DNA of 50,513 bases, taken from a virus. The stretch is taken from the IMG/VR virus record IMGVR_UViG_3300002098_000051, positions 1 through 50,513 of that record, one strand, 5' to 3'. Below, piece after piece: positions 448-45,844 of the stretch. The notes below the pieces were generated by a model. It was not told the origin of the DNA, did not search any database, and saw only the letters and a program-made list of their open reading frames with translations. The translations under genes were made by a program, and so were the position numbers. Numbering within the stretch: position 1 is the first letter of the stretch; the number at the start of each line of letters is the position of its first letter.

Positions 448-780
448 AAAAAAGGTGATGCTCCGGCATTCGAAGTTCCTGTCATCCCTAATATACACCA
501 GATGGTTTTTGATGCAGTTAGCAATCCTGGCGCGTTTGATATGGGATCGTGGCACAAATGCGAAACAACACACTGCAGAGCAGGGTGGGTTGTCGTATTA
601 GCAGGATCGGCTGGTAAAGAATTAGAGTCACGCACAACTACATTATTTGCAGCAATGCAAATATATCATAAGTCGTCTCCGGAAATAGAAGTAAGTCCGG
701 TTCGGTTTTACGAAACAAATGAAGTGGCAATGGAAGATATTAAACGATGCGCCGAAGCAGAGAAATTAGCAACTATTTAA
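1..780 (+). CDS. 3' part of junction-spanning gene: (Cys-X-X)n repeat protein with a ~110-aa C-terminal domain (5' part is 50127..50513)
   Basis: Frame +1 is open from base 1 to TAA at 778-780. Bases 1-447 read C-(S/N)-(G/D/R) repeats in the same frame as the ORF running off the right edge. The C-terminal domain contains WHKCETTHCRAGW. The track entry 502..780 is only the Met-started tail of this frame. Confidence 0.75.
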   Translation, partial: SDCSGCSGCNGCSDCSGCSGCNGCSDCSGCSDCSRCSRCSRCNDCSDCSRCNDCNGCSGCSGCNGCSDCSGCNGCSDCSGCSDCSRCSRCSRCSRCNGCSDCSGCSGCNGCSRCNGCSDCSRCSGCNGCSDCSGCSRCSRCSRCNDCSGKKGDAPAFEVPVIPNIHQMVFDAVSNPGAFDMGSWHKCETTHCRAGWVVVLAGSAGKELESRTTTLFAAMQIYHKSSPEIEVSPVRFYETNEVAMEDIKRCAEAEKLATI

Positions 781-794
781 TATGATTTAAAAAT

Positions 795-832
795 AAAAAT
801 CCATAGATAATAATCTGGATTTTTATTTTTTT
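795..832 (+). terminator. Rho-independent terminator after the junction-spanning gene
   Basis: AAAAATCCA (795-803) pairs with TGGATTTTT (816-824), followed by ATTTTTTT. It lies 15 nt after the stop codon. Confidence 0.7.
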
Positions 833-846
833 GGCATGATTAATGC
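832..846 (+). promoter_or_regulatory. sigma-54 (-24/-12) type promoter motif
   Basis: TGGCAT-gatta-ATGC with GG-N10-GC spacing, followed by TGTATATCA. The ATG at 871 lies 24 nt downstream. Confidence 0.6.
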
Positions 847-870
847 TGTATATCAGTAAAACCAAACAAA

Positions 871-1062
871 ATGGAAGACCAGGATCAAATCGAAGAATTA
901 ACTCTCGCCGAGATGCAGGATGCAATCGACGGCCTGCATAACGATTACGAAAAAACCATTGACAAAAAGGTAAAGAAACAACTGGCCGCGCAAATGAAAG
1001 CGTTAATGTCTGATTATAACGAGCGTGTCGGTTTTTTAGCTTACGACGAAGATAAATACTAA
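871..1062 (+). CDS. hypothetical small acidic protein (63 aa)
   Basis: ORF directly downstream of the promoter motif at 832, with an A-rich leader. No recognisable domain. Confidence 0.6.
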   Translation: MEDQDQIEELTLAEMQDAIDGLHNDYEKTIDKKVKKQLAAQMKALMSDYNERVGFLAYDEDKY

Positions 1063-1094
1063 AAAAAATACTTTTAATAAGGTAACTTTATTTT

Positions 1095-9608: not shown

Positions 9609-9796
9609 TGTTCCATCATTTTTTTAATGTAAGCAATATTTTTTTTATGCTCCTTTTCCAGTATAGATATCATGTCCTGGCACTGATCTTTAGAAAGGTT
9701 AGAAGCAAAACCTTTAAAGAATAACCATAGACGCTGGCCTATCGGCTGACTTTTCATCAGCTTTCGCAATGCCGCGAGATTTAAGATCGTTTTCAT
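9596..9796 (-). CDS. hypothetical protein (66 aa; start revised to ATG at 9796)
   Basis: The track start at 9820 is a TTG lying inside the TACGTTTG promoter box. The first ATG (MKTILNL...) sits 21 nt after that box. Confidence 0.5.
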   Translation of the reverse strand: MKTILNLAALRKLMKSQPIGQRLWLFFKGFASNLSKDQCQDMISILEKEHKKNIAYIKKMMEQCTN

Positions 9797-9817
9797 TAAT
9801 GTTGTTGTATTGTATGG

Positions 9818-9893
9818 CAAACGTACTATTTAAAAGTCAATAAAAAAATTTTTAAAAATAATTTTTTTTATTCCGGAAAGTTTTTTACTTTTG
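9818..9893. promoter_or_regulatory. bidirectional promoter module A: TAnnTTTG box (minus), 33-bp A/T-tract element, TAnnTTTG box (plus)
   Basis: Reading left to right: minus-strand TACGTTTG (9818-9825); a 10-nt spacer; GTCAATAAAAAAATTTTTAAAAATAATTTTTTT (9836-9868); a 17-nt spacer; plus-strand TACTTTTG (9886-9893). The 33-mer recurs in inverted orientation at 41708-41740. Confidence 0.7.
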
Positions 9894-9897
9894 GTTT

Positions 9898-10062
9898 ATG
9901 ATTTTACTGGCATTTATTTCAATCTTTGGTTTTCTCGGAGCGTATGTTAATCTTCGCAGTTACGAGTCAAAGACTAAATATCCTGGCATCGTTAAATTCG
10001 CCTCCAATCTTAAAAGCGGTAAGCAAAAAAGTTTTCTTAATCAGTTAAAAATAAAAAAATGA
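9898..10062 (+). CDS. small membrane protein (54 aa), not in ORF track
   Basis: ATG lies exactly 4 nt after the TACTTTTG box. N-terminal hydrophobic helix (ILLAFISIFGFLGAYV). The stop overlaps the SSB start as ATGA (10059-10062). Confidence 0.5.
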   Translation: MILLAFISIFGFLGAYVNLRSYESKTKYPGIVKFASNLKSGKQKSFLNQLKIKK

Positions 10063-41376: not shown

Positions 41377-41679
41377 TTATTCTATTATGCTGGTTACGAT
41401 TAATAATACACCATTAGCGGCGTTATTGGCGACAAGTTTTGGGACGCAGTTTATTTTAATCTTACCGCCTACAACAAACAACGCATCGTGCGACCGCTTT
41501 ACTGGATCAAAATCTATAGATACCTGCGTTTCGTTGGCAAGGTTGCAAGATGGTATCTTGTCAATTACTTCACTATAACAGGTAACGGTATGTATTTTAT
41601 CTAAACCAGTTACTTTCGCTTTGCGCCGGTAGTGTATGTTATCATCCACTATGTCGGTTATTTCTATTTCTGCAATCAT
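41377..41679 (-). CDS. hypothetical protein (100 aa; start revised to ATG at 41679)
   Basis: The track N-terminus (41680-41742) is the A/T promoter element. The ATG at 41679 lies exactly 4 nt after the TACATTTA box. Confidence 0.5.
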   Translation of the reverse strand: MIAEIEITDIVDDNIHYRRKAKVTGLDKIHTVTCYSEVIDKIPSCNLANETQVSIDFDPVKRSHDALFVVGGKIKINCVPKLVANNAANGVLLIVTSIIE

Positions 41680-41683
41680 GGCA

Positions 41684-41758
41684 TAAATGTATAAACATTT
41701 TTGTTCTAAAAAAATTATTTTTAAAAATTTTTTTATTGACACGAAGTGTTTACATTTG
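41684..41758. promoter_or_regulatory. bidirectional promoter module B (inverted copy of module A)
   Basis: Reading left to right: minus-strand TACATTTA (41684-41691); a 16-nt spacer; the reverse complement of the 33-mer GTCAATAAAAAAATTTTTAAAAATAATTTTTTT (41708-41740); a 10-nt spacer; plus-strand TACATTTG (41751-41758). Confidence 0.7.
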
Positions 41759-41774
41759 TAAAAAATAAAACAAC

Positions 41775-42674
41775 ATGAACAAAAGCATTCAAATCAAACT
41801 GAAAGGAGGCGGCACGTTTACGCTAACATCGGCTGGCCTCGCAAAACTACACGCTGCCGGTAGAACGCTCGCGGCGTTCGGAGCAAACGAAATAGATAAA
41901 GACTTACCAATTCGCGAAGGTCTTATAGACGACGAAACTTTTGGCATCAAGTGGGCTGAGGTTACGATGGGTCAGGCTTTGAAAGAAGCTAACAAATTTC
42001 GTGATTACTTTACTAAAGTAGAAAGCCTCCGTGAGTTATCAAAGTATGTGCATGTCGGCGCAATAGCTCCGCACGAAGATATTGCCGACGCAATGGTGGA
42101 CAAAGTAGAGGCCCTGGTTGTTAACGCAGTGGCTTTCGATAAGCATAAAGACGGCCTGCGTTTATTTGTTGAAAACGTAGAGAGTATTCTTTTACCAGGA
42201 TCGGTACACGGCAGCATAAAGAATGATGCTGACGGTTTGCCATTTGGCAACATGATTGATTTACTTAAACAAGTCGACGCCAACGTTAAGCAAAGACTTA
42301 TCGATAAGGATCGTGTAAGTAAAGAGCTTTCTGATGAGCGTAACATGCTTACCGAGTTTTTGTTAACCACCATGAATATATCGAAAGATATTACAGATCA
42401 CTCCACTACGCACGGCGCAGCGATGAACCTTATGCTGGATCAGCGCAGAAAGATCGCAAACCTCGACGAAAAGCTCACCGAGGTAGCTACGCATCGCGAT
42501 AAACTAGAGCAGCGCCTTACCGATATTACAAAAGAACACACTGCCTTATCTAATACGCTACAAAGTTTCGACAAGCTCCTTGAGCTTACCCTGGCGCACG
42601 TACTTAGCAACCGCGCAAACTTTACAGATAGCCAAAAGAAAACGCTTCTCGCTATTGCTGTATTCAACGATTAG
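41775..42674 (+). CDS. hypothetical helical protein (299 aa)
   Basis: First gene from the plus-strand box of module B. No motif recognised. Confidence 0.55.
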   Translation: MNKSIQIKLKGGGTFTLTSAGLAKLHAAGRTLAAFGANEIDKDLPIREGLIDDETFGIKWAEVTMGQALKEANKFRDYFTKVESLRELSKYVHVGAIAPHEDIADAMVDKVEALVVNAVAFDKHKDGLRLFVENVESILLPGSVHGSIKNDADGLPFGNMIDLLKQVDANVKQRLIDKDRVSKELSDERNMLTEFLLTTMNISKDITDHSTTHGAAMNLMLDQRRKIANLDEKLTEVATHRDKLEQRLTDITKEHTALSNTLQSFDKLLELTLAHVLSNRANFTDSQKKTLLAIAVFND

Positions 42675-43287: not shown

Positions 43288-43307
43288 GGATCGTAAGTAA
43301 TAGGAAT

Positions 43308-43339
43308 GAAAAAACCCAGGTTTCGGCCTGGGTTTTTTT
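43308..43339. terminator. strong bidirectional terminator between convergent genes
   Basis: A7-CCCAGG (43315-43320), loop, CCTGGG (43327-43332)-T7. Confidence 0.88.
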
Positions 43340-43357
43340 ATATCGTTTAAGTAGCTT

Positions 43358-43927
43358 CTACTGACTTCGGTAATAAATATACTCTTTATTAAGATAGTAA
43401 GAAGCGAAGGCTGCGTATTGATGCGTGCCGTCTGGCGTTAACTTGACTCGGTAAAACCTATCATCTTTAAGAAAGCTCCACCCTCCGGATACAAATAACG
43501 CGAGATCATTAGCAACGAGCGTGATCGGCGAAGCGCCAACCTCCGTTCCCCAGTGGATCGCGTCCGTCGAACTTTCCAAAGTAGCTACAACCGTTGACGT
43601 GCCTACGCCTACCGTCAGGAGGCTAACCTTTACCTCGAGGTGGCCATAACCGACAATCGGGTAAGGATAAAACAGCGAGTCTGTTTGCGTCCCTTGCAAT
43701 GGTATCATCTTGCATGTGGTAAGGTACATTTTGACGGTAGCCGATCCGGTATCGAGCTGCGTGCCGATGTTGTCTGGCGTAACTTCATTGAAGTACACAT
43801 TATCAAGGTTCAGCATCTGTCCGGATACCTCATACGGCCCATTAAGTGGAACCTGCGCAAACGCGCCAGGTGGGGCCGCGAAACAAAGTAGTGCGATCAG
43901 CACCATTCTGATGTGTTTCATAATCAT
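43358..43927 (-). CDS. secreted protein with a signal peptide (189 aa)
   Basis: Starts MIMKHIRMVLIALLCFAAPPGAFAQ. A near-consensus TACTTTTA box lies 10 nt upstream. Confidence 0.55.
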   Translation of the reverse strand: MIMKHIRMVLIALLCFAAPPGAFAQVPLNGPYEVSGQMLNLDNVYFNEVTPDNIGTQLDTGSATVKMYLTTCKMIPLQGTQTDSLFYPYPIVGYGHLEVKVSLLTVGVGTSTVVATLESSTDAIHWGTEVGASPITLVANDLALFVSGGWSFLKDDRFYRVKLTPDGTHQYAAFASYYLNKEYIYYRSQ

Positions 43928-43962
43928 TTAATTTTTGTAAAAGTAAGTAAAAGATTCAATAT

Positions 43963-44259
43963 TCAAAGCTCGGGCAAATCGTACCAGCCACGCAACGCAT
44001 GTGCACAATCGCTTAGATAGTTTATTCTGCCGTCCTGAACAAAAGTATGGCACAATGTCTTCTCCGGAGTGCCGGTTTGTGGGTTAGCAGGATGAAATAC
44101 ACGTATAGACGGAGAAAATGTTGGCTTATCTATATCATTATTAAAACGCCAGCACGGACTTTCCTTCGGATCGGTATTAACTGCGTGGCTATTGCCACAA
44201 CCTGGGCAATCGAACAGATATGTCCCTTTAACGTTTTGTATTTCTCTAACCTTTGCTAT
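43963..44259 (-). CDS. Cys/His-motif protein (CPGC...C...CH...DCAH; DUF6527-like from memory) lacking a canonical start codon
   Basis: The minus-strand frame is open from 44277 to TGA at 43965-43963. It reads ...IIAKVREIQNVKGTYLFDCPGCGNSHAVNTDPKESPCWRFNNDIDKPTFSPSIRVF...LCHTFVQDGRINYLSDCAHALRGWYDLPEL. There is no usable ATG/GTG/TTG (the only one is a TTG 76 codons in). An in-frame ATA at 44259 sits 4 nt after the TACTTTTA box. Confidence 0.5.
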   Translation of the reverse strand: MAKVREIQNVKGTYLFDCPGCGNSHAVNTDPKESPCWRFNNDIDKPTFSPSIRVFHPANPQTGTPEKTLCHTFVQDGRINYLSDCAHALRGWYDLPEL

Positions 44260-44263
44260 AATG

Positions 44264-44336
44264 TAAAAGTAAATTTTTTAAGTCAAAATAATTATAAAAA
44301 TAATTTTTTTAGAATAGATCGTTTTATTTATCTTTG
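44264..44336. promoter_or_regulatory. bidirectional promoter module C (partial copy of the A/T element)
   Basis: Reading left to right: minus-strand TACTTTTA (44264-44271); a 10-nt spacer; GTCAA...AAAAATAATTTTTTTAG (44282-44312); an 18-nt spacer after the T-run; plus-strand TATCTTTG (44329-44336), which overlaps the sigma-54-type motif. Confidence 0.6.
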
Positions 44337-44349
44337 GCATACTATTTGC
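44335..44349 (+). promoter_or_regulatory. sigma-54 (-24/-12) type promoter motif
   Basis: TTGGCATactatTTGCA followed by TTATATCA. ATG at 44374. Confidence 0.6.
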
Positions 44350-44373
44350 ATTATATCATAAAAAGCAATTAAA

Positions 44374-44790
44374 ATGAAACAACTAATAATAAAAGGTATA
44401 GAACTGGATTTGTTTAACTATACGGACGGCCAGGGTTTTTCTAAAAGCATAACCGATGTCGATTTGTTGGTTAGCATATTAACCGATCATAAACACGTTA
44501 CCGAAACCGTTTTGCGTAACATGGTTAACGCTATGCAATACGTTAAGGATAATAAAATGCGCAGATACATAATTCTTTTCCTTCACTTTACTAATCCGCG
44601 TAAAGGTGGCGTGCATAAGCTGCAAAAGTGTAACCAGACATTTATACGCGGCGGCGTAAAAACGCCTACCAACTGCAACCAAACCAATCTTTTTGAAAAG
44701 CCATTTAGTATATCAAGGTATAACGATTGTTTTTTACCTGGCGCAGATACTTTCCATGTTTATAACGGTAGCGATTTAGTTCGCGCTTGA
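44374..44790 (+). CDS. hypothetical protein (138 aa)
   Basis: ORF after the promoter motifs. No domain recognised. Confidence 0.55.
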   Translation: MKQLIIKGIELDLFNYTDGQGFSKSITDVDLLVSILTDHKHVTETVLRNMVNAMQYVKDNKMRRYIILFLHFTNPRKGGVHKLQKCNQTFIRGGVKTPTNCNQTNLFEKPFSISRYNDCFLPGADTFHVYNGSDLVRA

Positions 44791-45585: not shown

Positions 45586-45844
45586 GATCCACTTTGATAC
45601 GCCGCTAAAGCACGCCAGCCACTACCTCGGTTACACGCCTAATGCCGTTACCTTTATTACACGCATAAAGAACCATAAGGCTGGGCGCGGCGCAAAGATA
45701 CTCGCTGCGTGTAATGCCGCAGGTATTACGTGGAATGTTGTCCGTACCTGGCCGGACGCTGATCGCGACTATGAGCGTAAACTTAAAAAGTGTTACAACC
45801 TACCGTGTTATTGCCCTATTTGCAAAAAGAAACGTAAGAGATGA
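45575..45844 (+). CDS. GIY-YIG-like small nuclease-fold protein (89 aa)
   Basis: VYLIHFDTPLKHASHYLGYT...RIKNHKAGRGAKIL...ERKLKK resembles the GIY...YxG...R..H..G...E pattern. Has a C-terminal CYCPIC. Confidence 0.5.
   Translation: MVYLIHFDTPLKHASHYLGYTPNAVTFITRIKNHKAGRGAKILAACNAAGITWNVVRTWPDADRDYERKLKKCYNLPCYCPICKKKRKR

Follow-up and report, generated by a model that had tools for sequence, protein, structure and literature searches.

A phage DUF6527 gene with ATA where its family starts translation, on a predicted leaderless mRNA

Results

The locus and its genome

The window analyzed here is the whole 50,513 bp of the IMG/VR virus record IMGVR_UViG_3300002098_000051, which is complete (100% as estimated by CheckV), carries direct terminal repeats, and has a GC content of 41-43%. 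It is the genome of a tailed phage, with genes for terminase, portal, capsid, primase, and helicase, and the standard code gives a dense gene map; a search of the whole window found no tRNA genes. The closest kin of the portal protein, at only 31-34% identity, are those of Flavobacterium, Bacteroides, Parabacteroides, and Croceibacter phages, and because these are all phages of Bacteroidota, the host is presumably a member of this group. No close relatives were recovered by comparing the DNA with phage records, by exact-pattern scans of viral and metagenome contigs, or by protein-guided scans with the DUF6527 gene described below and with both of its flanking genes.

The gene of interest is transcribed leftwards (Table 1). 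Its frame opens at 44277, just past a TAA (44280-44278), and runs through 104 open codons until it meets the TGA at 43965-43963. The first ATG, GTG, or TTG within it is the TTG at 44055, which is the 75th of these codons and codon 69 if counted from the ATA. An earlier note on this DNA, made from the letters alone, had pointed out that the frame has no usable canonical start and that the accompanying ORF listing gave the plus-strand ORF 44047..44361 instead, and this description is accurate, since initiation at TTG 44055 leaves just 30 amino acids. This 30-residue product is absent from a collection of 15 billion proteins, which also has no exact record of the product of the plus-strand ORF, and that ORF has no family support; the family signal, from both Pfam and phrog_3362, is carried by the frame opposite to it. 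Gene finders bound to start codons thus overlook a real and conserved gene at this locus and list its antisense shadow.

Table 1. Features of the DUF6527 locus, in window coordinates.
Feature	Coordinates	Strand	Basis or remark
189-aa secreted orphan gene, downstream in the leftward unit	43358-43927 (43358..43945 with its box)	-	Signal peptide
DUF6527/BubE-like CDS, 98 codons from ATA to L98, plus TGA	43963..44259	-	Pfam, phrog, alignment
Antisense shadow ORF, 104 aa	44047..44361	+	Given by ORF finders instead of the real gene
Cys70-His71 codons	44047..44052	-	His71 aligns with the BubE catalytic His; Cys70 lies near the fourth zinc cysteine
First canonical start, TTG	44053..44055	-	Yields the last 30 aa only, without the Cys18/Cys21/Ser51 core
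Ser51 codon (PTFSPS motif)	44107..44109	-	Aligns with the BubE catalytic Ser; invariant in 67 sequences
ATA where the family has its initiator Met; predicted transcript +1	44257..44259	-	Alignments A1 and A3
In-frame ATT adjoining the ATA upstream, second near-cognate candidate	44260..44262	-	Sequence
Bacteroidota sigma-A type -7 box TACTTTTA	44264..44271	-	Pattern scan; aligned with TACGTTTG and TACATTTG of the sister cassettes
In-frame TAA shutting the frame upstream	44278..44280	-	Translation; parts the gene from the mini-frame 44340..44281
TTGAC element (44286-44282) and shared A/T tract of the bidirectional promoter cassette	44282..44312	-	Alignment A4

The frame encodes an intact DUF6527 protein

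The translated frame matches Pfam PF20137 (DUF6527) with an E value of 3.5e-15 and 56.1 bits against a cut-off of 23.6 (56.3 bits in a six-frame scan of the genome), and phrog_3362 with an E value of 7.3e-28 and 97.8 bits. The earlier note had called a small protein in the frame from 44277 to 43963, guessed at DUF6527, and proposed an HMM search as a check; these matches bear out both the call and the guess. There are tblastn matches in at least 273 phage records, and ten metagenomic proteins at 41-54% identity are present in the 15-billion-protein collection, within which no DUF6527 protein exceeds 54% identity to that of the window. PADLOC and NCBIfam searches gave no match, and comparison with the PDB by sequence and by fold returned nothing meaningful (best VIA Z score 3.1).

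The gene shows no sign of decay. Its 98 open codons contain none of the lesions sought (stops, frameshifts, or losses of invariant residues), and in a 67-sequence alignment (A3) all 14 invariant columns and all six near-invariant columns are kept, the residues checked being the Cys pair, His, Trp, PTxxPS, CH, G, L, D, and H. An HMM built without the window's protein scores it at 110.5 bits, within the range of 101-135 bits (median 118) for the training members, and the AlphaFold2 model has a pLDDT of 92 and is all-beta. These data show that the ORF 44259..43963 on the minus strand truly belongs to the DUF6527/BubE family, as a phage member that stands alone. The gene is real but unannotated, and its start reads ATA at the predicted leaderless +1.

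ATA lies at the initiator methionine position of the family

The best homolog, P0001, begins MAKIREIK opposite IAKVREIQ in the window (alignment A1), and alignment A3 has the consensus start M-x-K, with the ATA lying beneath the Met of homologs that begin MAK or MSK. The start codons of homologs, a check that the earlier note had called for, were inspected in the DNA of 80 viral-contig loci and 10 bacterial-genome loci, which together encode 76 distinct proteins. A canonical start is present 14-29 codons ahead of the first Cys codon in all 90 (80 ATG, 8 GTG, and 2 TTG), such that a non-canonical start is shared by none of these relatives, which are no closer than 54% identity. The ATA is placed 17 codons ahead of the first Cys, and most homolog starts 14-22 codons ahead; the 23 open codons preceding the first Cys in the window include no canonical start. 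Because the ATA falls exactly on the family's Met and canonical starts are used in 90/90 loci, the alignments show ATA to be the derived state, one G>A transition in the coding strand having turned the family's ATG into ATA here.

This is also the sole real gene of at least 80 codons in the genome that is without a canonical start. Since the ATA is a one-off both in the family and in this genome, it does not reflect a systematic mechanism. Two further candidates were examined and rejected: the minus-strand frame 773..1087 merely shadows a 63-aa gene on the plus strand (871..1062), and an ATA at 45772 (minus), 5 nt past a box, lies opposite a real gene encoded on the other strand.

A promoter box precedes the ATA at a spacing that predicts a leaderless mRNA

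The box TACTTTTA at 44271-44264 is followed by the four nucleotides catt and then the ATA at 44259-44257. Most promoters mapped in Flavobacterium johnsoniae leave 4-5 nt from TANNTTTG to the transcription start site, and the -7 consensus is TAnnTTTG with a near-invariant last G (PMC6847099); in F. psychrophilum the box occupies positions -12 to -5 (PMC9723704). With the box 4 nt away and this published Bacteroidota spacing, transcription would be predicted to begin on the first base of the ATA, giving a leaderless mRNA with a 5'-terminal AUA, the first 33 nt of which are unpaired in the centroid fold. The box is a departure from the consensus at one position, with a final A replacing the near-invariant G.

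The box is part of a cassette of about 80 bp that occurs three times in the genome, at 9790-9905 (-), 41672-41785 (+), and 44245-44345 (-) (alignment A4). In all three, TTGAC-N10-TAnnTTTR occupies one side, while the opposite side carries an A/T tract and a second box. Several statements of the earlier note about this region hold. It gave the arrangements TACTTTTG-gttt-ATG at 9898, TACATTTA-tgcc-ATG at 41679 (minus), and TACTTTTA-catt-ATA, all of which are as described; it put the box before the ATA on the GTCAA side of its module C, which is the TTGAC side of the cassette in alignment A4; and it read the 4-nt spacing as leaderless, in agreement with the published Bacteroidota geometry, the start site itself being a prediction.

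The same layout recurs across the genome. At 4 or 5 nt past a box there are nine ATGs, seven of them with ORFs of at least 45 codons, compared with four such ORFs over 14 other spacings. Six of the seven ORFs are gene starts, at 1095 and 9898 on the plus strand and at 41679, 27749, 26966, and 20158 on the minus strand, and the phage thus appears to use a leaderless arrangement of box, 4-5 nt, and ATG at six other genes. Because the 4-5 nt spacing is so sharply enriched, a notable share of the phage transcripts may be leaderless. A share of this kind is unusual for Bacteroidota, in which host values are 3.7-5.5%: leaderless mRNAs make up 5.5% of the total in F. psychrophilum (PMC9723704), and about 3.7% of Bacteroides thetaiotaomicron mRNAs have a 5' UTR of less than 10 nt. 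The DUF6527 gene is the only real long ORF with a near-cognate codon 4-5 nt after a -7 box.

An alternative box, TATTTTTA, is situated within the A/T tract at 44302-44295 and could leave an A/U-rich leader of 30 nt. The ATT at 44262-44260 is in the mRNA only if transcription begins further upstream than the ATA, and a start from TATTTTTA might place both AUU and AUA on a leader, with initiation at approximately 1-2%. A sigma-70-style reading of the region as TTGACT-17-CATTAT was rejected, as it is not relevant to a Bacteroidota host and shuffled sequence scores equally well. On the plus side of this third cassette copy the position 4 nt past the box is ACT, not ATG, and within 44329-44350 the plus-strand box TATCTTTG overlaps a sigma-54-like TGGCAT-N5-TTGC, 24 nt ahead of the gene at 44374.

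Neighboring genes

The DUF6527 gene and the 189-aa orphan make up a small moron-like unit that is transcribed leftwards and is flanked by operons running rightwards. The orphan has its own TACTTTTA box at 43945-43938, 10 nt ahead of its ATG. It has no Pfam or PHROG match, and the neighbors of the DUF6527 gene are orphans. Rfam searches gave only weak, sub-threshold matches (STnc370 and Leu_leader), which are terminator-like and fall in the hairpin region 43305-43389; this hairpin is probably a bidirectional terminator between convergent units.

A second orphan, at 41377-41742 (-), is started at GTG 41742 in public calls (P0017, 121 aa, 3 contigs), with the result that its coding region crosses the promoter cassette. 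Judging by the promoter layout, the ATG at 41679, 4 nt past TACATTTA, seems the more plausible start and would give a product of 100 aa. The 41679 gene has no homologs beyond its own cluster.

Discussion

Explanations for the ATA

The earlier note had offered three explanations for the ATA, namely non-AUG initiation, a recent ATG>ATA inactivation, and a sequencing error, and these are indeed the explanations to be weighed. We put the chances at about even that the locus is a recent start-loss allele, null or strongly hypomorphic, of a dispensable accessory gene, and not a dedicated non-AUG mechanism. The change from ATG to ATA would be expected to lower protein output to a few percent at most, because leaderless initiation in the bacteria tested depends on a 5'-terminal AUG: on leaderless reporters in Caulobacter, any near-cognate codon in place of AUG, including AUA, drastically cuts output (PMC8459731). 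The change is presumably recent, since the remainder of the gene is undecayed, and no special initiation system is suggested, given that no other real gene lacks a start, the phage encodes no tRNA, and no family member is alike in this respect. Several considerations temper the start-loss reading. The intact ORF would fit low-level use equally well, and both the weak box, with its final A, and the possible upstream promoter TATTTTTA count against it. Moreover, loss of the start codon is estimated to account for only a small part of gene inactivations, nonsense and frameshift mutations being commoner.

The protein could instead still be made at a low level from the AUA, either 5'-terminal on a leaderless mRNA or together with the AUU on a short leader, a low dose of a protease-like protein being tolerated or even selected; we consider this doubtful. 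In its favor, the ORF is intact with every invariant residue kept, ATT and ATA are adjacent and in frame in A/U-rich, unstructured surroundings with an A at -3, and the ATA state is seemingly common to the other contigs of the phage. Bacteroidota select their starts without a Shine-Dalgarno sequence, chiefly via unstructured A-rich regions, and on leadered E. coli reporters AUA, AUU, AUC, and CUG reach 1-2% of the AUG level (bioRxiv 10.1101/063800). However, AUA strips leaderless reporters of nearly all output, no other gene of this phage does likewise, none of the 90 homolog loci uses a non-canonical start, and the nearest relatives found are at no more than 54% identity. A full-text literature search found no bacterial or phage AUA or ATA start or initiation codons among the matches listed. 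The more specific proposition, that a Bacteroidota host translates the leaderless 5'-AUA mRNA, its Shine-Dalgarno-free start choice tolerating a non-AUG codon, and so produces a BubE-like peptidase at trace level, is in our judgment unlikely. If it were true, the product would be a trace deconjugating peptidase, possibly countering ubiquitin-like anti-phage conjugation.

The true codon may instead be ATG, with the consensus base at 44257 either wrong or a rare allele, and the case would then be a plain annotation miss; the genome is assembled from a metagenome and the whole case hangs on one base. Consensus substitution errors are rare, though, and by our estimate have a small chance of striking a start codon. 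In addition, identical copies of both proteins flanking the DUF6527 gene are present on 2-3 contigs drawn from JGI/IMG, MetaClust, and an independent Logan assembly, and none of these yields a callable 98-aa product; since gene callers would have predicted the 98-aa protein from any copy with ATG, those assemblies probably share the start-less state. The contigs were compared via the flanking proteins, and this probably argues against a simple assembly error, such that we regard an artefact as quite improbable. More remote still, to the point of being barely credible, is translation that starts at ATG 44340, in a 20-codon mini-frame, and continues past the TAA (44280-44278) through the DUF6527 codons. 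This mini-frame (MPKINK...ILT*) shares the reading frame of the gene, and just one TAA parts the two. However, it sits within the conserved A/T promoter cassette, the two other copies of which contain no such gene; homologs have their first residue at the aligned MAK and are not extended N-terminally; and the standard code already yields a dense gene map. No suppressor tRNA is supplied by the phage, since the window encodes no tRNA. We judge the presence of this mini-frame (44281-44340, minus) in the A/T cassette to be coincidental.

The locus provides a natural test of the need for AUG on leaderless messages in Bacteroidota, which lack Shine-Dalgarno start selection, with six sister examples bearing ATG in the same genome.

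Comparison with BubE and other phage DUF6527 proteins

The phage protein is a small all-beta domain, putatively zinc-binding, with a conserved Ser-His pair, and its only characterized relatives are the BubE peptidases. BubE (DUF6527) is encoded in bacterial Bub ('6E') ubiquitination-like operons and is a zinc-dependent Ser-His peptidase that removes BubA conjugates (PMC11601596). As a reference we used the BubE encoded at L100:1408-1863 in an enterobacterial genome (G093), beside a DUF6791+ThiF E2-E1 protein. In this Type II Bub-like pair (L100:236-1863) the 391-aa DUF6791+ThiF gene overlaps that of the 152-aa DUF6527 protein by 4 nt, and the latter bears a C-terminal extension.

Both proteins match PF20137 over profile positions 2-62, and the columns of C18, C21, W37, P50, S51, and H71 of the window's protein are shared with the reference. 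In alignment A2, S51 falls under the WPS serine of BubE and H71 under its C-x-x-H histidine, and by the matching spacing given in PMC11601596 they would correspond to S92 and H102 of the Citrobacter protein. The AlphaFold2 model is compact and all-beta with no PDB homolog, as was reported for BubE (PMC11601596). The phage gene differs in that it stands alone, without E1, E2, or Ubl partners, and no ThiF domain is matched anywhere in the complete phage genome; its product is a 98-aa core domain only, without a hydrophobic N- or C-terminal extension. Where BubE has CxCxC the phage protein has CxxC, and towards its C-terminus it carries an additional invariant motif, SDCxH, that characterizes the phage subfamily. 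The C4 zinc finger of BubE comprises CxCxC and one cysteine near the His, whereas the window's protein has C18-x-x-C21, C70, and the subfamily-specific H25, C85, and H87, and its set of zinc ligands is probably different. On the strength of these alignments, we take the protein to be of the same Pfam family as BubE and putatively similar in its working, but not a Bub-operon BubE.

Other close parallels are the stand-alone phrog_3362 proteins, including RcapMu gp34 and those of Salmonella, Klebsiella, and Erwinia phages, which have the same length, the same invariant residues, and the same MAK-type N-terminus as the window's protein. They differ from it in that every member examined has a canonical start. 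Their genomic contexts vary, the gene lying between terminase and portal in RcapMu and after the endolysin in phage Haddon. Eight records of Erwinia and Klebsiella phages (H6, H7, H19, and H26-H30) have a stand-alone DUF6527 protein labelled 'putative ammonia monooxygenase', which, in view of the work on BubE, looks like a propagated misannotation. The peptidase role of BubE, taken with the presence of relatives in at least 273 phage records, raises the idea of a putative counter-defence deconjugase that would act against conjugation-based immunity, an idea that concerns the phage subfamily as a whole.

Comparison with leaderless and non-AUG starts

Leaderless mRNAs are common in Caulobacter, Mycobacterium, and Deinococcus. 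The DUF6527 locus resembles these bacterial leaderless messages in that the box sets the predicted +1 on the first base of the start codon and the 5' end is unstructured; it is unlike them in that its 5' codon is AUA, not AUG or GUG, and its start site is predicted. The genes infC and pcnB are both leadered, and the AUU of infC serves autoregulation. They are the confirmed non-AUG starts of E. coli, AUU in each case (bioRxiv 10.1101/063800), and the DUF6527 gene is similar to them in having a near-cognate AUN codon at an authentic N-terminus. However, the codon here is ATA, is unique against 90 relatives, and is located at a predicted leaderless 5' end.
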